This document shows, one piece after another, positions 6,598 through 60,428 of a stretch of DNA of 64,000 nucleotides. A model generated the notes under the pieces. It was not told the origin of the DNA and searched no databases. It saw nothing but the letters and a program-made list of their open reading frames with translations. Position 1 is the stretch's first letter; each line of letters opens with the position of its first letter. The position numbers were made by a program, and so were the translations under genes. Source of the stretch: Candidatus Magasanikbacteria bacterium RIFCSPHIGHO2_01_FULL_33_34 (GTDB lineage Bacteria; Patescibacteriota; Patescibacteriia; Magasanikbacterales; UBA922). The stretch is taken from contig MFPS01000006.1 in NCBI GenBank assembly GCA_001782825.1, forward strand, positions 84,553 through 148,552, given 5' to 3'.

Positions 6598-8724
<2,127 letters not shown>

Positions 8725-21854: not shown

Positions 21855-22427
21855 CTAGACTCCTTTCCAGACTACCTGTGAAAGATAGCCTTCTGGATAA
21901 ACAACTGGTGGAATTACCTCATCGGGCACATAGCCCAAATTAATAAAATATTTCCTAGTATGTCTAGGCACTAAACCGAAAGCTGTTTCTACCCCCAAGG
22001 AAAAGGACAATTCAGTCGCCATTTTAATCAATTTGAATCCATATGACTGACCAGTTAACTCCTCAGAAATAGCTAAGCTACTCACCTCTGCTAAAGATCC
22101 ATGCGGACACCCCAGTATTTTTTTTGTAAACAATTCAGATTGTGCACCAATTGCTATGTAGCTCGGCAACTCAATTCCTTCAAGATTCAAATGAACCCTT
22201 ATGCATCCACGAATCTTATTACAACTATCTACAAGTAAGATAAGATAAACACCATTTAAATTCAACTTACTTTCATCTGCTGAACTTACATATGAAACAT
22301 TATGGCGCTTTAATGCTCCTTTCTGTATTTCTAAAGACAGTTTGAAAGATTTTTCATCATCAATCGCACGTATAGTCTTAAAAGTACAAAAGCCTTCTAA
22401 TGATTTTTCTGTTGCATATTGAGTCAC
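21855..22427 (-). CDS. Hypothetical protein with possible GNAT-like acyltransferase fold
   Basis: TGQSYGFKLIKMA resembles GNAT motif A (Q/R-x-x-G-x-G/A). Otherwise unassignable. Confidence 0.3.
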   Translation of the reverse strand: MTQYATEKSLEGFCTFKTIRAIDDEKSFKLSLEIQKGALKRHNVSYVSSADESKLNLNGVYLILLVDSCNKIRGCIRVHLNLEGIELPSYIAIGAQSELFTKKILGCPHGSLAEVSSLAISEELTGQSYGFKLIKMATELSFSLGVETAFGLVPRHTRKYFINLGYVPDEVIPPVVYPEGYLSQVVWKGV

Positions 22428-22590
22428 AAGCCCCCCTTGTTATAGTCACATAAAATTATTAGAAGACTTCAAACTATATATTATTTAATAAAAAAAGTCA
22501 AGGCTTTACCTGGGTGAATTAAAAAATTATTGACAAATACATATATTTATGATATTAAATATATGTCACTAAAACCCAAAGGGGGGCAAT

Positions 22591-22863
22591 ATGGACGAAA
22601 CAACCGAGCAAGATAAACTTCTTGATACACAGCCAATCGTCGATAAACTGCTCGACGAAAAACTAAAATACATGTATGAAACTGTATTGGATCTAATCGC
22701 CATGGGTAAAAAAGAAATAGCAAATGATGTTTTAACAGTTTTTTATGAAACTTACTGCAAAAACACCCTGGTTGATGAAACAACTCCAAAACTAATCAAA
22801 AAAATATCACGGATGTATAATGGTTTGGTAAACAAAAAAACAGATGGCCCAAAACCATCATAA
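22591..22863 (+). CDS. Hypothetical small acidic protein
   Basis: 90-aa ORF with the RBS aaaggggggcaat upstream. Preferred over the overlapping antisense 80-aa ORF. Confidence 0.35.
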   Translation: MDETTEQDKLLDTQPIVDKLLDEKLKYMYETVLDLIAMGKKEIANDVLTVFYETYCKNTLVDETTPKLIKKISRMYNGLVNKKTDGPKPS

Positions 22864-33166: not shown

Positions 33167-34966
33167 TTATTCTTTATTCTTCCTATTTTTTTTAATAATT
33201 TCATCCAATTTTTTGGTAGCTGTTTCTGTTTTACATCTAACCGGGCCTTTACCAGAAATATCTGCAACCGAAGGAGAAACAAAAGTTTTAAACCGCGTCC
33301 CACCATCTTTTTTAATCCCCATATTTATAGCATTGATATCAATACCATATTCAAGTCCCATGCTTGCCTGTCTAAAACCAGGTGATTGACCTTCTTGAAG
33401 AACTCTAACATGCCCTCTGCGACTAATAAAAGATTTAACCTCTGCATCATTACCGTCCCCGGTTGATTCCCTCACCTTTTCAGAGCACTTAATTTCTCGC
33501 AAATGACTCAATATAATATTTTTAATAAATTCACCTTTTCCAGAAAAATTTATAGGTTTTTGTGTTTTTGCATTTCTTGGAATAACATACTGATCCAAAA
33601 GCAACCTAAAAGTATAAAGCCCAATCTTAACATCAACGATAACTTCTTTTTTATTACTTTCATTTATAGTATAGGTGACTGTTTCAAAACCCAATTTTAA
33701 AAGCTCTGGATCTGTTATTTCAACCCTGTCACCTCTCGGACTCAATGAATATCTTGTATTATCCTGAATATCTTGTTTCAAAGAAACATTTAACTCACCC
33801 AATTCTTTCAAACCTTCTTCCAAATCCAAATTATCTGGCATTATTTGTGACAGCGTTTCCCAATATTCAGTATCCAAATGCAATTCGTCAATACCACCCT
33901 CAGTTTTTTTAAGAAATTCTAACAATCCACTATTTATTTCATCCTGAGATAATCCATTGGCAATACTAGTTGCTGTAGGTAATATAACTGAAAAAGTATC
34001 TTCATTATTTTCACTTTTTATAAGTTTTGCGCCTTCATTAGCAACAAATTTTCCTAATTCACCACTTTTAGTCAATGCTCTTAATAAACCAGTTTTATCA
34101 CCTCTTAAAATTTTTTCTATAGGGATATCATTTTCCTTATTATAAAGATCATTTAATTTTTCCATTCTTTTCAATATTATTATTCCCTCATCCTTACCAA
34201 CATCTTTCAACCTTCTATCAAACTCATTTTTAAATTCATCACTTTCATAAATATTAGCTTCAACCTCACTATAATTTTTAACAATATCTTCTAGTCCATC
34301 TGATTTTTGGCTATGCAAACCAATCGCCCCTTCTATTTCCAATCTTTTAGCTAAAATATCATTATCTGATGAAAATTTTGATATCACAAATAAAAGCGCT
34401 TGTCTTGATTCTGTTTTTAATATATCTGTCTTGTACGACAAAATTTCTACAAGTTTATCTGATATTTTTTTATTTCCTGAAAAAAATCCACCCACACAAA
34501 GTTCATAAATAAAATCTACCAACTCCTTTTCATTGCCCAATTTATTAATTTTATTAGTCAATAAAGCTTCAGCCAACTCACCATAAATTTGATCTTCAAC
34601 CATAACCGTCATCCATTTTTCCAAAACACCAGCATCTTTTGGCAAATTTACTTTCTTTAATTTCTCAATCAAAGAATTCTTAAAATCTTCTGACCTATAA
34701 CCAGGTATATCCGCTAACAATTCCAAAGAGTTAATAGTATCAATAGCTCTAGTAGGATCAACAACCAATTCCTTACTCAGTCTATCAATCATTGCTTTTT
34801 GCCTATCTCGCCCTTTAGCCTCTCCTTCTTTCCTCGGCTTATCTACAAAATTGTTAAACTCGCTGACCATATTCATTGATGAAGCTAGCTGAGGGGTAGA
34901 TAAAATAACAGAATCTTCTTCTGATTTTATATATTGTTCTGGATTATAGGAACCTTCAGTTCTCAT
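33167..34966 (-). CDS. Hypothetical 599-aa soluble protein with no detectable family
   Basis: No signal peptide or TM. Largely helical, Lys/Glu-rich. C-terminal Gly-rich region (GDGNDAEV...RRGHVRVLQEGQSPGFRQ...GKGPVRC). Bounded by a terminator and a 1-kb non-coding region. Confidence 0.6.
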   Translation of the reverse strand: MRTEGSYNPEQYIKSEEDSVILSTPQLASSMNMVSEFNNFVDKPRKEGEAKGRDRQKAMIDRLSKELVVDPTRAIDTINSLELLADIPGYRSEDFKNSLIEKLKKVNLPKDAGVLEKWMTVMVEDQIYGELAEALLTNKINKLGNEKELVDFIYELCVGGFFSGNKKISDKLVEILSYKTDILKTESRQALLFVISKFSSDNDILAKRLEIEGAIGLHSQKSDGLEDIVKNYSEVEANIYESDEFKNEFDRRLKDVGKDEGIIILKRMEKLNDLYNKENDIPIEKILRGDKTGLLRALTKSGELGKFVANEGAKLIKSENNEDTFSVILPTATSIANGLSQDEINSGLLEFLKKTEGGIDELHLDTEYWETLSQIMPDNLDLEEGLKELGELNVSLKQDIQDNTRYSLSPRGDRVEITDPELLKLGFETVTYTINESNKKEVIVDVKIGLYTFRLLLDQYVIPRNAKTQKPINFSGKGEFIKNIILSHLREIKCSEKVRESTGDGNDAEVKSFISRRGHVRVLQEGQSPGFRQASMGLEYGIDINAINMGIKKDGGTRFKTFVSPSVADISGKGPVRCKTETATKKLDEIIKKNRKNKE

Positions 34967-35257
34967 ATATAATATTATTAAATATTACTTATAATACCAT
35001 ATATAAATTAGCATTTACAATATTTTTACAAACGACATACAAAATAATAAAATAAAAATATTTTTATTATATATTTAATTAAAAAATAAACATTTTGTAT
35101 AAACAATCCTATACAATTTTTTAAAAATATAATTTAAAAAATTAATATTTTTGCCTTAAATAAGCAAAATATTATCAATATTTTACCAAAAATAACCTCT
35201 TACTGAACACCAATTGTAGACAACAATTATGCAAATCCACCCATATTTTTCCATTGT

Positions 35258-35368
35258 TTGTATAGACTATTGTATACAACTGTGGATAACTCTGTGCAAA
35301 ACTCCAAAAAAAGTGGATAAATCCATAAAAAACACCAAAAAAACTATTTGTATAGACTAGTGTATACA
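35258..35368. promoter_or_regulatory. Organised operator-like module: two DnaA boxes bracketed by two copies of a 22-bp palindrome
   Basis: Palindromes ttgtatagactattgtatacaa (35258-79) and ttgtatagactagtgtataca (35348-68). Between them are a perfect DnaA box reverse complement tgtggataa (35281-89) and a one-mismatch box agtggataa (35312-20). The module lies about 50 bp upstream of the promoter at 35419. Confidence 0.45.
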
Positions 35369-35418
35369 TTTTTTATTCATTAAATAAGCCATTTTTTAGC
35401 TTATTTTAGCAAAAAACA

Positions 35419-35447
35419 CCCCTTACTCTTGACAAAAGTCCAAAAAT
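35419..35447 (+). promoter_or_regulatory. Near-consensus sigma70 promoter (TTGACA-17-TATAGT)
   Basis: ttgaca at 35419-24, an exact 17-nt spacer, then tatagt at 35442-47. Confidence 0.6.
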
Positions 35448-35453
35448 ATGTTA

Positions 35454-35918
35454 TAGTATATATGTAGTTCATTACAATGTTCTCTATAACTGAAAGGTTA
35501 TGAGAACATCACTCTCCTTTACTGCAAACATTCCTGTTCTCACCCTTGCGAACAGTCCTATCAATATGAAGAAAGATGCTAAATTCCTTTCTACACAGAT
35601 AGCACGTCGCTCAACAACGCCAAGTAAGCGTCCGCTGAAAGGCACAAAAACAAACATAAAAGTTAAAAACAGAGGCGAGACCAGGACGGTGTGATCTCAA
35701 TTTATAGCGGTTCATGCTTCGGCTGAATCGTCGAGATTCCTACCATTTAGTGGTAGAGGGGTTTTCTACCGTTATAACCTTGTCTATGAGTTTTTTCTCG
35801 AGCCATCTGATAATTTAAATAATTGAATTATGAGACGGCTCGAGTACTCATGCAAATATAACGCATGAGGCAGTAGCCATTTATTAATTTATTCGGTGTC
35901 ACTGCCTCTATTTTTTTT
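35454..35918 (+). ncRNA. Candidate roughly 465-nt structured transcript of unknown class, from the promoter to the terminator. May carry a small basic ORF (about 42-64 aa) in its 5' half. The 3' half is GC-rich and hairpin-dense.
   Basis: Multiple perfect stems are present: UUCG-capped uucaugc-uucg-gcugaa, cuacca/ugguag, gguaga/ucuacc, cucgagcc/ggcucgag and cucaugc/gcaugag. Terminator hairpin gaggcagt...actgcctc plus T8 at 35867-35918. No match seen to RNase P, tmRNA, SRP or 6S hallmarks. Confidence 0.4.
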
Positions 35919-36011
35919 GTAAAATATTTATCATTAATACAAAAAAGACAATAAGTCTTGCCAAACTACAACATTTAATATATAATTATTTCATATTTTA
36001 AAAATAAGTAT

Positions 36012-36404
36012 ATGACCAAAAAGAAATCTGCCTTTACCAAAGAGTTCCTGAATGAAATCAAGGCACTCCTGCTCCAAGAAAAAGAAAATCTCACAGATGA
36101 ACTTGATAGATTTACCAAAAAAAATCCCCACACATCTGATGATTATGATGCTAGTTTTCCAAATTATGGTGATGAAGAAGATGAAAATGCTCGTGAAGTA
36201 GCCCAATATACAGCCAACAAACCCCTAGAAATCACCCTCGAAAAAACCCTAAGGGATACTAACAAAGCCCTAGAAAGCCTTTCCAAAGGGACCTATGGTA
36301 TTTGTAAATATTGTGATCAACCAATTGATGAAAAACGTTTACGAGCTAGACCAACCTCAGGAGCTTGTATTTCTTGTAAAAAAACTCTTACTGACGAGGT
36401 TTAA
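36012..36404 (+). CDS. DksA/TraR-family C4 zinc-finger protein
   Basis: C-terminal GICKYCDQPIDEKRLRARPTSGACISCKK (CxxC-N17-CxxC) with an acidic coiled-coil N-terminus. Confidence 0.6.
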   Translation: MTKKKSAFTKEFLNEIKALLLQEKENLTDELDRFTKKNPHTSDDYDASFPNYGDEEDENAREVAQYTANKPLEITLEKTLRDTNKALESLSKGTYGICKYCDQPIDEKRLRARPTSGACISCKKTLTDEV

Positions 36405-53092: not shown

Positions 53093-53323
53093 AAAATTTT
53101 ATCGTTTAAAGACCATTTTATAATTGATATTTTATCATAATTAAGGTTTTTTTTAAATGTTATTTAAATTAATTTTATTTTAAATATAAGTATAGATTTT
53201 GTTGACATGAATTAAATAACGTAGTATTTTTTATGTGGCAAGTTATAATTGCATAAAGCGATTTACTACTTGCCATTGGTGGCGTCTCGGACTGGTTTCG
53301 AGACGCCACCCTTATATTTAAGA

Positions 53324-53352
53324 TTGACAAAGTAGTCATAATATGCTATAAT
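53324..53352 (+). promoter_or_regulatory. Consensus sigma70 promoter (TTGACA-17-TATAAT) driving the 3D-domain gene. Its leader has a perfect 16-bp palindrome CCTAGTATATACTAGG plus a U-tract.
   Basis: ttgaca at 53324-29, a 17-nt spacer, then tataat at 53347-52. The palindrome is at about 53390-53405, followed by attttatt. Confidence 0.6.
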
Positions 53353-53442: not shown

Positions 53443-54006
53443 ATGAATATTATGAAAATAAATTGGTTTAAAAGCAAATTTTTGCCTAAGATTAGAAAAA
53501 AAATAGCTAATTTAAGCAAAAAAGTTGATAAAAAGAGTGTACTTAATTGTTTTAGAGCAAGAATGTTTTTGTTTTCGGTAGCTGTTTTTGTTTTGCCTTT
53601 TTTGGTGAGTTTGGATCAGGTTAGTAAACCAAGTTTTCCAGTTTCAGATGAACGTAAACCATTGGAAACTATATGGGTAGTAGCAACTGCTTATTCAAGT
53701 GAAGTGGCCCAAACTGATGATACACCATGTATACCAGCCGATGGATATGATTTGTGCGCTCATTATGATGAATATGGTGAAGGTAATACAATTGCTACCA
53801 ATTTTTTACCATTGGGAGCCCAGGTAAAAATTCCAGAGTTATATGGTGAAAAAGTGTTTATTGTTCACGATAGGATGAATAAGCGATATGGTCAAGGAAG
53901 GATAGATATCTGGATGCCATCTCGGGCAGAAGCTAAAGCCTTTGGAGTAAAAAGATTAAAAATTGAATATTATGGTGGTAGTAGGTGGAGAATAGTATCA
54001 AATTAA
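53443..54006 (+). CDS. 3D-domain (MltA-like/YuiC-type) cell-wall-binding lytic transglycosylase-like protein with an N-terminal signal/anchor
   Basis: VVATAYSSEV...GAQVKIPELYGEKVFIVHDRMNKRYGQGRIDIWMPS matches the 3D domain (conserved Asp residues). Confidence 0.7.
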   Translation: MNIMKINWFKSKFLPKIRKKIANLSKKVDKKSVLNCFRARMFLFSVAVFVLPFLVSLDQVSKPSFPVSDERKPLETIWVVATAYSSEVAQTDDTPCIPADGYDLCAHYDEYGEGNTIATNFLPLGAQVKIPELYGEKVFIVHDRMNKRYGQGRIDIWMPSRAEAKAFGVKRLKIEYYGGSRWRIVSN

Positions 54007-54011
54007 TACAA

Positions 54012-54032
54012 AACCCGCGAAAGCGGGTTTTT
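54012..54032 (+). terminator. Rho-independent terminator after the 3D-domain gene (aacccgc-gaaa-gcgggtt plus T5)
   Basis: Perfect GC-rich stem with a GAAA loop and a T-run. Confidence 0.7.
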
Positions 54033-54037
54033 GTATT

Positions 54038-54054
54038 GGAGGTACGAGCGGGAA
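54038..54054 (-). repeat. 17-nt fragment duplicating the 3' end (T-stem plus acceptor) of tRNA-Cys, 162 bp beyond the tRNA 3' end
   Basis: ggaggtacgagcgggaa versus the tRNA 3' end agaggtacgagcgggaa (16/17). Confidence 0.6.
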
Positions 54055-54216
54055 GCTCACACGCTTCGCTTTTCGAGAACCTTCGGGTTCTCGAATAACT
54101 CTCCTCAGCATGTAAGGGGTTGCACCCCTTACCATCCCCAGTTCAATTCCCTTTTTTAAAAAACCTAAAATTAATTTTTCAGTTAAATAAAAAATAATCT
54201 ATAAGAACTTTGTTAG

Positions 54217-54386: not shown

Positions 54387-54467
54387 TTATGATAGAGAGA
54401 TAATATCATATTTGTATCTTTTTTTCAATACCCTTATGTGCTAATATATATTGTATATAAAAATATT

Positions 54468-57155
54468 ATGGACAAGAAAAAAAGATTTATCATAATTGAT
54501 GGTAATGCCATTATCCATAGAGCATATTATGCTTTGCCACCCATGACGGCCAAAGATGGTACGATGGTGAATGCTGTATATGGTTTTACTTCAATGTTAC
54601 TTAAAGTCATAAATGATTTGAAACCAGATTATCTCACGGTTAGTTTTGATGTGGCTGGTGGTACTTTTCGTGACAAAATTTTTGATAATTACAAAGGTAC
54701 TCGTGAAAAAGCTGATCAAGATCTTTATGATCAAATTCCAATTTGTCATCAAGTAGTAGAAGCGATGGATATTCCAATTTATTTAAAAAAAGGTTATGAG
54801 GCGGATGATGTGATTGGTACAGTTGTAAAAAAATTGGAAAAAAAAGATTTGGAAATAATTATTGTGACAGGGGATATGGATATACTTCAACTTGTAAATT
54901 CTCAAGTAAAAGTTTTTCAGTTGAGAAAAGGTATAACAGACACAGTATTATTTGATGAAAAAGGTGTTATTGAAAAATATGGTTTTGGACCAGATAAAAT
55001 TATTGATTATAAATCATTGCGAGGAGATGCATCAGATAATATTCCTGGTATAAAAGGGATTGGCGAGAAGACTGCCAAGTTATTGATAGAAAAAATAGGC
55101 GGAATAAAAGAAATTTATGAAGACCTAGAGAAAAAAAATTCAATTTTGGAAAAAGAATTTAAATCAGGGGTGATTGAAAAAATAAAGATAGGAAAAAAAG
55201 ATGCATTGATGAGCCAAGAGTTAGCTACAATTCATACCGATGTTCAAGATTTAGATTTTAAATTGGAAGATTGTGCTGTAAATCCATTTGATGAAATAAA
55301 AATAAAGGATTTATTTTTTAAATTAGAATTTTTTTCTTTGCTTAAACGCGTGCCAGGGCTTAGTAAAAGTACAGTTAAAATTGAAAAAAATACTAAGAAT
55401 AAGGTTTCAAAAAAAATTAAATTGATTGATAAAAATAATTTTGATGAATTTTTAAAAAATATTGAAAAAACAGAAAAATTTGTATGTACAGAATCTTTGT
55501 CTGGCCAAAATGTGATGACTGATGAGTTTATGGGACTAGTGTTTTTGTGTGATGGCGAGACTTATTATATAGATTGGAAAAAAATAAATGAAAAAAATAA
55601 AAAAGAATTAACAAAAGTATTTTCAGATAAAAATAAAATTTTTGTTGGGTATGATTTGAAGCAGGTTATAAAGTTGCTAAAGTTAAATAATATTGAAGTT
55701 GAGAATAAATTATTTGATATTATGATTGCTTCGTATTTGATTAACTCTAGTGTGCGATCACATGGATTGCGAGGTTTGGTGATTCGTGAATTAAATATAG
55801 AATTGCCAGAAGTCAATACGCAAGTAAGCTTGTTTGGGTTAGATCCACAAGAATTAGCAGATCAACTTGGTTATATTGATTTACTTGAGCAAAAATTTAA
55901 AGTTGATTTGGTCAAACATGAAGATTTGGGATTGTTTGAAAAAGTAGAGATGAAATTAATTAAAGTCTTGGCAGAGATGGAAATAAATGGCATGGCGGTT
56001 GACAGGGATTTGCTTGAAAAACTATCTAAAGAAGCAGGTGAAAGATTAAAAAAACTTGTATCAAATATCCATAAAGAAGCAGGCGAAGAGTTTAATGTAG
56101 CGTCGTCAGTTCAGCTTCGTGAGATATTGTTTGAAAAAATGAATTTGTCGGCAGAAGGAATTAAAAAGGGAAAAACAGGGTATTCAACGGCTGCATCCGA
56201 ATTGGAAAAATTGAGAGGTACACATCCTATTATAGAAATGATTGAGGAGTTTCGTGAAGTGGAAAAATTACGAAATACATATATTGATGTTTTGCCAAAT
56301 TTAATCAATAAAAAAACCAATAGAATTCATACTACATTTAATCAAGCAATAACAACAACTGGTAGATTGTCGAGCTCTGATCCAAATTTACAAAATATTC
56401 CGATTAGAACAGAATTGGGCCGTGAAATTCGCAAAGCATTTGTGGCTGAAAAAGGCAATATATTGATCGCAGCAGATTATTCTCAAATTGAACTTCGTAT
56501 TGTGGCTTCTCTTGCTAAAGACAAAAGATTGATTGAAATTTTTACAAATGGAGAAGATGTTCATAAAGCAACGGCTGCTATTATAAATAATGTTAAATTA
56601 GATGAAGTTACTCGTGAAATGCGCTATGCAGCCAAGGAAGTTAATTTTGGTGTACTCTATGGTATGGGTGCCTATGGTTTGTCATGGCGAGCGGGTATTC
56701 CGCAATGGCAGGCCAAAGAATTTATTGATGAATATTTCAAAAATTTTTCTGGTGTAAAAAAATATATTGATCAAACATTAAAATTCGCCAAAGAAGAAGG
56801 TTATGTAGAAACTTTGTTTGGCAGAAGACGTTATATTCCAGAATTAACATCAGAAAATTTTCAATTACGAAATGCGGGTGAGAGAATGGCTGTGAATATG
56901 CCAATTCAAGGTACTGCTGCTGATATTATGAAAATGGCAATGATTGAAGTGAGTGAACAAATAAAAAAGCATAAAAAAAATAAAGATATCAAATTGATTC
57001 TTCAGGTGCATGATGAAGTTGTGTTGGAAGTAAAAAAAGGAATAGAGAGTGAAATTGCAAATCTTGTAAAAAAAGCTATGGAATCAGTAGTTGAGTTGAA
57101 TGTTCCGATTGAAGTTAAAACTAGTATAAACAAGAATTGGGGTGAAATGAAATAG
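54468..57155 (+). CDS. polA: DNA polymerase I (5'-3' exonuclease, degenerate 3'-5' exo, and polymerase domains). Start taken at MDKKK; the ORF track begins 30 nt earlier.
   Basis: FIIIDGNAIIHRAYYAL (5' nuclease), RRxAKxVNFGVLYG (motif B), ILQVHDEVVLE (motif C). Confidence 0.95.
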   Translation: MDKKKRFIIIDGNAIIHRAYYALPPMTAKDGTMVNAVYGFTSMLLKVINDLKPDYLTVSFDVAGGTFRDKIFDNYKGTREKADQDLYDQIPICHQVVEAMDIPIYLKKGYEADDVIGTVVKKLEKKDLEIIIVTGDMDILQLVNSQVKVFQLRKGITDTVLFDEKGVIEKYGFGPDKIIDYKSLRGDASDNIPGIKGIGEKTAKLLIEKIGGIKEIYEDLEKKNSILEKEFKSGVIEKIKIGKKDALMSQELATIHTDVQDLDFKLEDCAVNPFDEIKIKDLFFKLEFFSLLKRVPGLSKSTVKIEKNTKNKVSKKIKLIDKNNFDEFLKNIEKTEKFVCTESLSGQNVMTDEFMGLVFLCDGETYYIDWKKINEKNKKELTKVFSDKNKIFVGYDLKQVIKLLKLNNIEVENKLFDIMIASYLINSSVRSHGLRGLVIRELNIELPEVNTQVSLFGLDPQELADQLGYIDLLEQKFKVDLVKHEDLGLFEKVEMKLIKVLAEMEINGMAVDRDLLEKLSKEAGERLKKLVSNIHKEAGEEFNVASSVQLREILFEKMNLSAEGIKKGKTGYSTAASELEKLRGTHPIIEMIEEFREVEKLRNTYIDVLPNLINKKTNRIHTTFNQAITTTGRLSSSDPNLQNIPIRTELGREIRKAFVAEKGNILIAADYSQIELRIVASLAKDKRLIEIFTNGEDVHKATAAIINNVKLDEVTREMRYAAKEVNFGVLYGMGAYGLSWRAGIPQWQAKEFIDEYFKNFSGVKKYIDQTLKFAKEEGYVETLFGRRRYIPELTSENFQLRNAGERMAVNMPIQGTAADIMKMAMIEVSEQIKKHKKNKDIKLILQVHDEVVLEVKKGIESEIANLVKKAMESVVELNVPIEVKTSINKNWGEMK

Positions 57156-57193
57156 TGAGGACGCTCTTGCGCCCCCACATTCTTTCCCCCTAT

Positions 57194-57421
57194 TTAGCTG
57201 TTGTTGTCGACTCTTCTGATTCGGTCTCTGCGACCCCTGCCCTTGGGCTTACTGGTGTTGTTAGTAGTATTTTCTGAAAAAGGTATGATTTTTTGTTCAG
57301 GTTTTTGTAGTGGTCTTGTACTAACACGGAGTCTAATGACTGGTTTTGTCGATCTTCCTGTGGAAGACCGACCACGATGATTAACTCCCATCAGAGAGCC
57401 ACCAAAACGATTGGCTTTCAT
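57194..57421 (-). CDS. Hypothetical small Arg/Gly-rich basic protein with a strong RBS, inside a GC-rich island
   Basis: 75-aa ORF MKANRFGGSLMGVNHRGRSSTGRST... with GGAGG 7 nt upstream of the ATG. The identity is unclear and it could be non-coding. Confidence 0.35.
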   Translation of the reverse strand: MKANRFGGSLMGVNHRGRSSTGRSTKPVIRLRVSTRPLQKPEQKIIPFSENTTNNTSKPKGRGRRDRIRRVDNNS

Positions 57422-57452
57422 TGTGTTTCCTCCAAATTTAGTATATCACAAT

Positions 57453-57564
57453 AAAAAAAAGTCGGCGACCGTGTTGCCACGGTCGCCGTGCAAGCAAGTA
57501 AGGTGGGGGGGACACCTTAGCTTCTCGCGTGACCGACCTGAGCCGAAGCTCGAAGGTACAGTCG
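57453..57564 (-). ncRNA. Candidate roughly 110-nt GC-rich small RNA delimited by a promoter and an intrinsic terminator (class undetermined; SRP-RNA-sized)
   Basis: Minus-strand -35 TTGACA and -10 TATCAT with a 17-nt spacer (57571-57599). Three hairpins: gagc-UUCG-gcuc, aaggug-uccccccc-caccuu, and the terminator cggcgaccgug-uugc-cacggucgccg plus U8. Confidence 0.5.
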
Positions 57565-57570
57565 ATTCAT

Positions 57571-57599
57571 ATGATAGCATATAAATTTTATTTTGTCAA
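57571..57599 (-). promoter_or_regulatory. Sigma70-like promoter (TTGACA-17-TATCAT) for the candidate sRNA
   Basis: Read from the reverse complement of 57571-57599. Confidence 0.5.
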
Positions 57600-57662
57600 G
57601 ACTTGATCATTTACATTATTTTTTTAACAATGGTAGAATAGAGCAATCAATTAAGACTATAT

Positions 57663-58631
57663 ATGTATATATTTATTTACGGAAAAGATAATTTTAGAAG
57701 TCAAAAATTTTTATCAGATAATATTGATAGATTTATTAAAGAAAGAGATCCACAAAAACTTAATACTGTTATTTTGGACTGTTTGAACAACAATAGAGTA
57801 GATTTTATGGGACAGATTTTGGCGCAACCATTTTTGGCAGAAAAAAGGATGATTGTATTGAAAAATTTACTTATTAGCAAAAATGAAGAATTGCAGATGG
57901 AGATAGTAAAAAGATTGAAAGAAAATAATTTACCAGAGAATAATATAATTATTTTTTGGGAGAGTATTGATACTGTTAAAACAAAATTAGGAAAAGAGTT
58001 GTTGGATATATTAAAAAAAGGAAAATTTTCAAGTAAATTTGATGAACTTAAGGGTGTGGATTTGGCCAGTTGGATTAGAGAAGAAATAAAAAATAGAGGT
58101 GGTAGTGTTGACAACACAGCTGTAGAATATTTAGTTAAGGAAAGTAAAGGAGATATCTGGCATTTAAATTCTTTGATTAATCAGCTTGTTTCTTATTGCA
58201 ATGATAGAGAAATTAATGTTAGCGATGTTGAGATTTTTTTGGAGGAAAGGTTTGATGATAATATTTTTAATTTGGTGGATGCAATAGTTGGTAAAAGAGA
58301 AAAAGAAGTTTATAAAATGATTCAAGAGCAATATCGTATTGGTGAAGACGTGCAATTTATGTTTGCAATGATATTGAGACAATTTAGAATAATAATTGAA
58401 TTGCGTGATTTGTTTGAAAGACAAAGTAAAATGAATAGCGATGAGATTGCCAAAAAATTAAAATTGCATCCGTTTGTGGTCAAAAAAACCTTGCCACTTA
58501 CTAGGCATTACAATATGGAAAAATTGAAATGTATCTATGATGATTTACTTGAGCTAGATATTCAAATAAAAACTAGTAAAGGCAATAATGAAATGTTATT
58601 AGATTTATTTGTTGCTCGTGTTTGTGTATAA
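57663..58631 (+). CDS. holA: DNA polymerase III delta subunit
   Basis: MYIFIYGKDNF start. 322 aa with the HolA domain organisation. Conserved convergent neighbourhood with rpsT. Confidence 0.75.
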   Translation: MYIFIYGKDNFRSQKFLSDNIDRFIKERDPQKLNTVILDCLNNNRVDFMGQILAQPFLAEKRMIVLKNLLISKNEELQMEIVKRLKENNLPENNIIIFWESIDTVKTKLGKELLDILKKGKFSSKFDELKGVDLASWIREEIKNRGGSVDNTAVEYLVKESKGDIWHLNSLINQLVSYCNDREINVSDVEIFLEERFDDNIFNLVDAIVGKREKEVYKMIQEQYRIGEDVQFMFAMILRQFRIIIELRDLFERQSKMNSDEIAKKLKLHPFVVKKTLPLTRHYNMEKLKCIYDDLLELDIQIKTSKGNNEMLLDLFVARVCV

Positions 58632-60182: not shown

Positions 60183-60254
60183 CCTTTCGTAGTTCAATGG
60201 ATAGAACAAGACACTCCTAACGTCTAGATCCAAGTTCGATTCTTGGCGAGAGGA
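60183..60254 (+). tRNA. tRNA-Arg (anticodon CCU)
   Basis: Manual fold: acceptor CCTTTCG/CGAGAGG, D-arm GTTC-AATGGATA-GAAC, anticodon arm AGACA-CTCCTAA-CGTCT (U33, CCU, A37), T-arm CCAAG-TTCGATT-CTTGG, discriminator A. Confidence 0.8.
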
Positions 60255-60300
60255 CTAATCGTAGTAGTTTCAGCCATAGGCTGATCAGCCTTTGGCTGAC

Positions 60301-60359
60301 AATGGATAGAACAAGACACTCCTAACGTCTAGATCCAAGTTCGATTCTTGGTGAGAGCA
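60301..60359 (+). pseudogene. Truncated tandem copy (D-loop to 3' end, 57/59 identical) of tRNA-Arg(CCU), 46 bp downstream of the intact gene. It lacks the 5' acceptor and D-stem strand.
   Basis: aatggatagaacaagacactcctaacgtctagatccaagttcgattcttgg is repeated exactly. The spacer contains the perfect palindrome GGCTGATCAGCC (60279-60290). Confidence 0.6.
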
Positions 60360-60428
60360 CAAAAATTATATTTACAAACAGTTGACATAAGGGTAGGTTT
60401 TGTGGTATTTAATTATAAGGTTTTATAA

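Follow-up and report, generated by a model that had tools for sequence, protein, structure and literature searches.

Small RNAs of the Firmicutes with C-rich loops, RsaE and RoxS, provide an analogy for pairing with G-rich Shine-Dalgarno regions (PMC4409812, PMC6158497). The locus described here, a predicted small RNA followed by a 75-aa ORF on the minus strand of the polA-holA gap in a Candidatus Magasanikbacteria (CPR) genome, resembles them in length (about 100-115 nt), in its own promoter and Rho-independent terminator, in its low-GC genomic setting and in having several hairpins with an exposed C-run; the unpaired C-rich motif typical of RsaE/RoxS is represented by one C7 apical loop. It differs from them in that no covariance model matches here, in that a single C7 loop stands in place of several UCCC motifs, and in that the RNA is found in two lineages whereas RsaE/RoxS are conserved across a phylum; nor does any target have statistical support here.

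Terminated leaders and attenuators, e.g. the L20 leader, share the arrangement of a structured, intrinsically terminated leader between the gene of a small, very basic protein and its promoter, but here no antiterminator or anti-antiterminator fold was found, the protein is no known ribosomal protein, and sister lineages do without the leader. Lambda N with its nut/boxB sites is likewise an Arg-rich and disordered small protein whose gene lies behind hairpins and beside terminators; the resemblance of our protein to its Arg-rich motif is compositional only (19 K+R in 75 aa, pI 12.0, a GRRDRIRRV helix), and, with no boxB-like motif, homology or phage context found here, the likeness is one of analogy. 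Bacterial small SRP (4.5S) RNA is alike in size and GC-richness, whereas its helix-8 fold and motifs are lacking here and our element is not conserved even among sister species. To our knowledge, almost nothing is known about the regulatory RNAs of CPR/Patescibacteria or about small proteins specific to their lineages; searching full texts for "candidate phyla radiation" together with "sRNA" returned no paper that, by title or abstract, was evidently on CPR regulatory RNAs.

The gene order polA-holA-S20 is widespread in Patescibacteria, and polA and holA are directly adjacent in many genomes. In Magasanikbacteria the gap between the two varies in length from about 0.4 to 3.8 kb and its contents are unrelated, which marks it as an insertion hot spot. 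In the window, by which we mean the whole 64-kb stretch of DNA that was analysed, a sequence-only reading had reported a GC-rich island behind polA, and it is indeed present: the RNA half reaches a GC content of 0.58-0.63 against a window mean of 0.33, 0.63 being the highest 100-nt value in the window, and the ORF half is raised to 0.40-0.50. The rise over the ORF fits a composition rich in Arg, Gly, Pro, Ser and Thr and requires no RNA structure. The gap can be read in four lineages, namely that of the window, L011 (the lineage to which L092, L095 and L096 also belong), L091 and L093. From polA to holA, the features are the following:

54438-57155, plus strand: polA, the gene on the upstream side of the gap, convergent with the small basic ORF
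57155-57178, minus strand: hairpin terminator T2 of 10 pairs, abutting the polA stop codon, with equivalents in L011, L091 and L093
57194-57421, minus strand: very basic 75-aa ORF (MKANRFGGSLMGVNHRGRSS...), ATG at 57421, pI 12.0, 19 K+R
57429-57433, minus strand: Shine-Dalgarno GGAGG, 7 nt before the ATG; (T/C)T(G/A)GGAGG is common to four positional orthologues
57440-57448, minus strand: extended -10-like box TGaTATACT, right copy of a duplicated -10 region
57453-57488, minus strand: intrinsic terminator T1, a hairpin (57488-57463) followed by AC and U8 (57460-57453)
57490-57528, minus strand: hairpin H2, AAGGUG-(U)C7-CACCUU, with the 7-nt apical loop UCCCCCC
57531-57563, minus strand: hairpin H1, outer stem GACUG/CGGUC, then ACCU/AGGU, apical GAGC-UUCG-GCUC
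57453-57566, minus strand: predicted terminated RNA of about 105-114 nt (from fold statistics and a syntenic match of covariance model R1)
57571-57579, minus strand: extended -10 box TGcTATCAT of promoter P1, left copy of the duplicated -10 region
57594-57599, minus strand: -35 box TTGACA of P1, aligning with the -35 of the single promoter of the L091 small-ORF gene
57610-57639, plus strand: divergent holA promoter TTTACA-18-TAGAAT with TG, in a sequence block conserved across four lineages
57663-58631, plus strand: holA (Pfam DNA_pol3_delta_C, E 3e-28)

The predicted RNA and its promoter

The minus-strand promoter TTGACA-17-TATCAT proposed earlier is found at P1; with its 17-nt spacer it scores 11/12 plus TG and belongs to the top four promoter matches of the last 20 kb. 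The TGaTATACT box downstream is a possible weak promoter, P2. In the window this candidate is without a -35 element, and no more than 6 nt separate its end from the Shine-Dalgarno. The second -10 box of L011 has a normal spacing to the Shine-Dalgarno, namely 24 nt. Elsewhere in the window (53278-53352, plus strand), a 14-bp GC-rich hairpin (GGTGGCGTCTCGGA...TCGAGACGCCACC) is directly followed by a perfect 12/12 TTGACA-17-TATAAT promoter with TG, which precedes a 187-aa gene at 53443, and about 1 kb at 34966-36012 is free of any ORF of at least 90 aa on both strands.

With its 5' end placed by the position of the -10 box (roughly 57566-57563) and its 3' end within the U8 tract, the predicted RNA has a minimum free energy (MFE) of -57.4 kcal/mol, compared to -34.0 +/- 3.5 for dinucleotide shuffles (z -6.67, 0/200 as good). 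All three hairpins seen by the sequence-only reading, including the 11-bp terminator stem with its U8, are recovered and, like the other features of that reading, lie at the positions given there. The C7 run at 57511-57505 within the H2 loop is the sole G7/C7 run in the window. The loop has an unpaired probability of at least 0.9, and no other long stretch within the RNA body is left unpaired. T1 consists of 11 perfect pairs (9 of them G-C) closed by a GCAA loop, has a hairpin energy of -23.0 kcal/mol and is the best canonical terminator in 20 kb.

Constrained folding of both the window and the L011 sequence yielded no antiterminator for T1: with the 3' arm of the terminator blocked, alternative pairing of the 5' arm reaches only about 3 kcal/mol in the window and 5 in L011, versus -23 for the terminator itself, so that there is no riboswitch-type switch. 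A riboswitch or attenuator was thus rejected, as there are neither mutually exclusive terminator and antiterminator folds nor an aptamer known to Rfam. Since a near-consensus P1 is combined with a near-ideal T1 and no competing antiterminator fold, the main product is expected to be a discrete, very stable RNA of ~110 nt. The idea of an sRNA bounded by promoter and terminator hence stands as far as P1, T1, the fold and a homologue in a sister species can carry it.

Kinship with SRP RNA, as had been suggested, or with 6S RNA did not survive a search with the Rfam covariance models, in which no SRP, 6S or other family was found. At gathering thresholds the whole window yields only two tRNAs. At E <= 10 with relaxed filters, positions 57100-57700 contain no SRP, 6S or RsaE and give only sub-threshold matches by chance, the best being ctRNA_pT181 (25 bits vs a gathering score of 56), which reflects the hairpin and terminator. 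ARAGORN reports no tRNA or tmRNA in the region, and only tRNAs and chance matches were returned by Rfam for 13 related loci (gathering thresholds) and for the regions of L011 and of L027, a more distant Magasanikbacterium (E-value mode). Across all these scans, suhB at 20 bits vs 41 is another such chance match.

A divergent housekeeping RNA, be it small SRP or 6S RNA, would fit the size of about 110 nt and the high GC content in an AT-rich genome, and the segment CAGGUCGGUC...GAAGC bears a superficial likeness to SRP helix 8, CAGGUCAGGUCC...GGAAGCAGCC. However, the MFE and centroid folds both split this segment between two different helices, the MFE fold does not bring it into a hairpin like helix 8, which has a GNRA-type tetraloop and conserved symmetric and asymmetric internal loops, and the strand GGAAGCAGCC, which we take to be the conserved helix-8 strand of E. 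coli 4.5S RNA, is absent from the RNA. Neither Bacteria_small_SRP nor Bacteria_large_SRP matches at gathering thresholds or at E <= 10, where even relaxed filters bring up no SRP or 6S. The element is also far from universally conserved: L091 and L093 do not have it at this locus, and the counterpart in L011 is unrecognisable by sequence and invisible to BLAST, unlike what is expected of a universal housekeeping RNA. 6S RNA forms a rod with a central bubble and is about 180 nt long; our RNA has about 110 nt, folds into three independent hairpins and matches no 6S model. The housekeeping reading is effectively refuted already, and we leave it only the faintest probability.

The small basic gene

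Downstream of T1, the GGAGG-led, very basic 75-aa ORF of the sequence-only reading is confirmed. Its possible absence from relatives had been raised as well; positional orthologues exist in all four readable lineages, each a GGAGG-led ORF of 64-93 aa (pI 11.4-12) that converges on polA and is followed by a hairpin terminator. T2 probably serves both convergent genes, polA and the small ORF. The orthologues are barely alignable, but have in common an M-basic-x-x-R-[FL] start, an S-x-[KR]-P...RV-S..P..KP pattern and RxRRxR segments; measured against composition-preserving shuffles, the similarity of the window protein to those of L093 and L011 amounts to z about 4, and no other pair is significant. 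Given these positional orthologues in four lineages, the conserved ribosome-binding site, start and terminator, and a similarity above that due to composition, the small ORF is probably a real gene. It probably evolves fast, is confined to a small clade and encodes a disordered basic protein. R/G-rich ORFs downstream of polA in L026 and L029 were discarded as alternative-frame artefacts of larger genes.

The protein was compared with ribosomal-protein and other families and matches none of them. None of the four orthologues has a significant match in Pfam, NCBIfam, PHROGs or PADLOC; the same Pfam search did detect S20, which served as a control. A ribosomal-protein leader was rejected, since the downstream gene belongs to no ribosomal-protein family of Pfam or NCBIfam. 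The 75-aa protein matches only itself in a word-indexed search of 5.8 billion proteins and in a phmmer search of 1.84 billion representative proteins, and a profile of the four sequences recovers only its own members. Metagenome contigs with the identical ORF number at least 24 and include several from the Rifle aquifer; the ten fetched loci that carry it are 100% identical over a 521-nt region; the window population is almost clonal in SNPs and gives no power to detect selection. The AlphaFold2 model built from four sequences (pLDDT 65, pTM 0.16) is too poor for a fold search, and it predicts the protein to be disordered except for a C-terminal Arg-rich helix, GRRDRIRRV, at residues 63-73. 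The protein, which falls in no known family, most likely is disordered, Arg-rich and nucleic-acid-binding.

In toxIN-type loci, a promoter is followed by a structured RNA, a strong terminator and, immediately downstream, a protein gene. The gene order is the same here, and the locus might accordingly be seen as a type III toxin-antitoxin-like module, in which the RNA would be the antitoxin, the terminator would set the ratio of RNA to protein and the basic protein would be the toxin. Yet the RNA contains no tandem or direct repeats, the 75-aa disordered basic peptide has no match in PADLOC, Pfam or NCBIfam and belongs to no ToxN, AbiQ, CptN or TenpN family, and two lineages keep the "toxin" without its "antitoxin". 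We consider such a module very improbable.

Relatives and origin of the RNA

The holA product carries the annotation Candidatus Magasanikbacteria. Close relatives comprise only five lineages, with holA 70-77% and polA 81-84% identical and a star-like relationship; between the window and the L011 lineage, amino-acid identity is 72% for holA and 84% for the C-terminal part of polA. Alignment of the spacer from holA to the ATG shows that both of its ends are conserved (holA promoter, TTGACA box, -10 box and ribosome-binding site). L091 and L093 are "empty", that is, promoter, short UTR, GGAGG and ATG follow one another and the RNA is missing. An additional block of ~140 nt is present in the window and in L011; it is made up of the GC-rich RNA, the terminator and the U-tract and lies between two -10-like boxes (TATGCTATCAT and TGTGATATACT in the window, TATGATACTAT and TGTGCTATGAT in L011). 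Each of these boxes resembles the single TATGCTATACT of L091, whose -10 is about equally like both boxes of the window. As the -35 of the L091 promoter aligns with that of P1 and its -10 is like the flanking boxes, the RNA appears to be driven by what was ancestrally the promoter of the small-protein gene. L095, which is 99.6% identical to L011 and has a rearranged upstream spacer, keeps the -35 and extended -10 in front of an identical RNA; the few mismatches between L011 and L095 mostly appear clustered in the spacer of the P1 promoter.

BLASTN of the 521-nt region against 90 loci retrieves only identical copies from the same population, and nothing from a relative with 83% identical polA. 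For a covariance model, R1, the window RNA with its MFE fold was the only input. Over 461 kb (the window plus 45 related loci) R1 finds, besides itself, only the syntenic element of L011/L095, matched at full length with 20.6 bits and an E-value of about 0.005 that may be off about five-fold. The L011 element folds exceptionally well (z -5.6); its MFE fold differs from the H1 of the model, and its second hairpin bears a C-rich apical loop, CCCCUCCU, which corresponds to the C7 loop of the window. Covariation in relatives, suggested as a check by the sequence-only reading, was thus looked for in this syntenic sister element: 98% of the cells are paired and there are 7 double-sided pair changes, two of them in the terminator stem, versus 0-1 in slid controls, though this evidence is thin, being drawn from two distinct RNA sequences in an alignment fitted to the model.

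We take the RNAs of the window and of L011 to be homologous. Hence, they would go back to one ancestral cassette, and the star-like tree leaves room for two losses as well as for a gain on a shared branch. No second copy of the RNA occurs within the 64-kb window, and a degenerate pattern of the window and L011 terminators picks up only L011-type copies in JGI metagenome contigs and nothing in viral contigs or the GenBank phage collection. As judged from these sequence collections, the RNA occurs in only two closely related lineages.

The cassette could be neutral or selfish, brought in by transposition, retroposition or slippage together with a duplication of ~11-15 bp of the -10 region, and its RNA would then have no function of its own. 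The flanking boxes indeed form imperfect direct repeats around the insert in both lineages, each repeat being like the single box of the empty L091 site, and the gap is a hot spot that many Patescibacteria leave empty and various Magasanikbacteria fill with unrelated genes or RNAs. Moreover, a small palindromic element is demonstrably mobile in the clade, and the RNA sequence evolves so fast that BLAST misses the L011 homologue. On the other hand, no second copy was found in the window, the 461 kb of related loci, JGI metagenome contigs or viral contigs, the element is without terminal inverted repeats, and its three-helix layout and terminator stem have been kept by double-sided changes between lineages as far apart as 72% (holA) and 84% (polA C-terminal part). 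We consider an insertion lacking a function unlikely. A more specific scenario, in which an sRNA gene, possibly retroposed as a terminated transcript with its U-tract at the end, was inserted exactly into the -10 region with a target duplication of 11-15 bp, captured the strong promoter and left the resident gene with a weak one, so that the Arg-rich disordered protein and the hairpin RNA might now form a CPR-specific regulatory pair, is a long shot.

Other Magasanikbacteria provide observations of their own. In L027 (holA 59% identical), the polA-holA gap contains a tandem pair of GC-rich RNAs (6700-7275, minus strand), paralogues of about 200-250 nt, each with a TTGAC(A/G) promoter-like box and a terminator, with no Rfam match and no small ORF; they share a ~20-bp helix (GAGGCCCTCCGGCTCCACCC / GGGTGGAGTCGGAGGCGCTTC) with compensatory changes between the copies. 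In the same gap of the Magasanikbacteria-like L015 (2465-3381, minus strand), a TTGACA...TATGCT promoter-like box precedes GC-rich hairpins, with a small Cys-rich ORF (...CEGACEGKSNCDTKGGCGCGEKNDACCMNHEE...) further downstream, contents that fit a hot spot for cassettes of small RNA and small ORF.

The surroundings of the locus also show what look like traces of duplication. Behind tRNA-Arg(CCU) at 60183-60255 lies a palindrome of 26-28 nt (CAGCCATAGGCTGATCAGCCTTTGGC, 60271-60298), followed by a 95%-identical partial copy of the tRNA (repeat 60195-60258 / 60300-60363). The population variants L003 and L004 align differently at 60183-60360 and seem not to have the stretch enclosed by the repeats, suggesting that a duplication or an excision is polymorphic here. 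The same palindrome, CAGCCAAAGGCTGATCCGCCTTTGGC, is found at 7152-7177 of L011, in an insert of ~100 nt upstream of holA that is absent from L095 (13900-13990); this points to a small mobile palindromic element common to the window and L011 species at different loci. On the other side, an intact tRNA-Cys(GCA) (54288-54216, minus strand) is flanked by copies of both of its own ends: unrelated GC-rich sequence comes after the 5'-end copy GGTACGGTAGCCAAGT (about 54385-54368), and the 3'-end copy TTCCCGCTCGTACCTCC (about 54055-54038) sits in a GC-rich intergenic island (54005-54156) that ends with a hairpin terminator (54031-54010). These copies look like integration or att-site scars or duplications of tRNA fragments.

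Possible modes of action

With moderate confidence, we favour the interpretation that a lineage-restricted cassette of two GC-rich hairpins and an intrinsic terminator lies between an ancestral promoter and the ribosome-binding site of the basic gene, where it would insulate or attenuate this gene and release an sRNA. P1, the ancestral sigma-70 promoter, would drive a discrete and very stable RNA of ~110 nt ending at T1, and the cassette would thereby insulate the downstream basic-protein gene or attenuate it. Expression of the latter would then depend only on residual read-through or on the weak extended -10 box. In more cautious wording, the best reading is that of a lineage-specific terminated sRNA or 5' leader apparently transcribed from an ancestral promoter.

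In the read-through RNA, the U-tract and the AUUGUG behind it are predicted to be able to pair with CACAAUGAAA, covering the start codon of the small ORF. This prediction fits the alternative that the RNA is a cis-acting 5' leader whose terminator a protein overrides: one of the hairpins would be bound by the Arg-rich product or by another factor, which would antiterminate as lambda N does at nut/boxB or repress as in ribosomal-protein leaders, thus closing a feedback loop on the basic gene. The RNA is on the strand of the ORF and is driven by the apparent ancestral promoter of the ORF; with P2 ending so close to the Shine-Dalgarno in the window, translatable mRNA there may come mainly from read-through. 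The protein, very basic, disordered and ending in the GRRDRIRRV helix, has an RxRRxR-type segment in 4/4 orthologues. Nevertheless, RNA binding by the protein is putative, Rfam searches show no boxB-like or known leader motif, and the normally spaced second -10 box of L011 makes read-through needless in that lineage. Furthermore, L091 and L093 carry the protein without any leader, and the RNA is thus dispensable for the protein. Altogether, we consider a cis-acting leader unlikely.

For the released sRNA of the favoured interpretation, the exposed C7 apical loop could, like the C-rich loops of RsaE/RoxS, base-pair with Shine-Dalgarno-like sequences or G-runs, and we infer such trans-action by analogy. 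Duplex predictions (duplexfold) for 52 translation-initiation regions of the window are no better than those for shuffled sRNAs. The window has three G6 runs, two of which are Shine-Dalgarno sites, located at 22436-22431 (minus strand) and 22581-22586 (plus strand) in a divergent gene pair. The pair (22427-22591) encodes a 190-aa protein with a weak GNAT match on the minus strand and a 90-aa protein of no family on the plus strand. With their unusual GGGGGG Shine-Dalgarno sites, these two genes would be the foremost candidate partners of the C7 loop. Closer to the RNA itself, two G5 runs are found just past the stop codon of the small ORF (57172-57190, minus strand; AUAGGGGGAAAGAAUGUGGGGGCGC). 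The second run, which forms the 5' arm of T2, shows 9/10 complementarity to CCCCCACCUU (57509-57500), the C7 loop with its 3' flank, which makes intramolecular pairing, or pairing of the sRNA with the 3' UTR, possible.

In summary, sequence and synteny support the locus as an unclassified example of familiar kinds of elements, a putative novel small RNA or terminated leader combined with a small basic-protein gene. Its general significance is limited in that the RNA is confined to two closely related lineages and its targets are candidates. If transcribed, the RNA would be a clean candidate for a CPR sRNA with a defined promoter, a defined terminator and an exposed seed. The locus would, moreover, neatly illustrate how an RNA cassette with a terminator can take over a promoter and re-wire the gene behind it.
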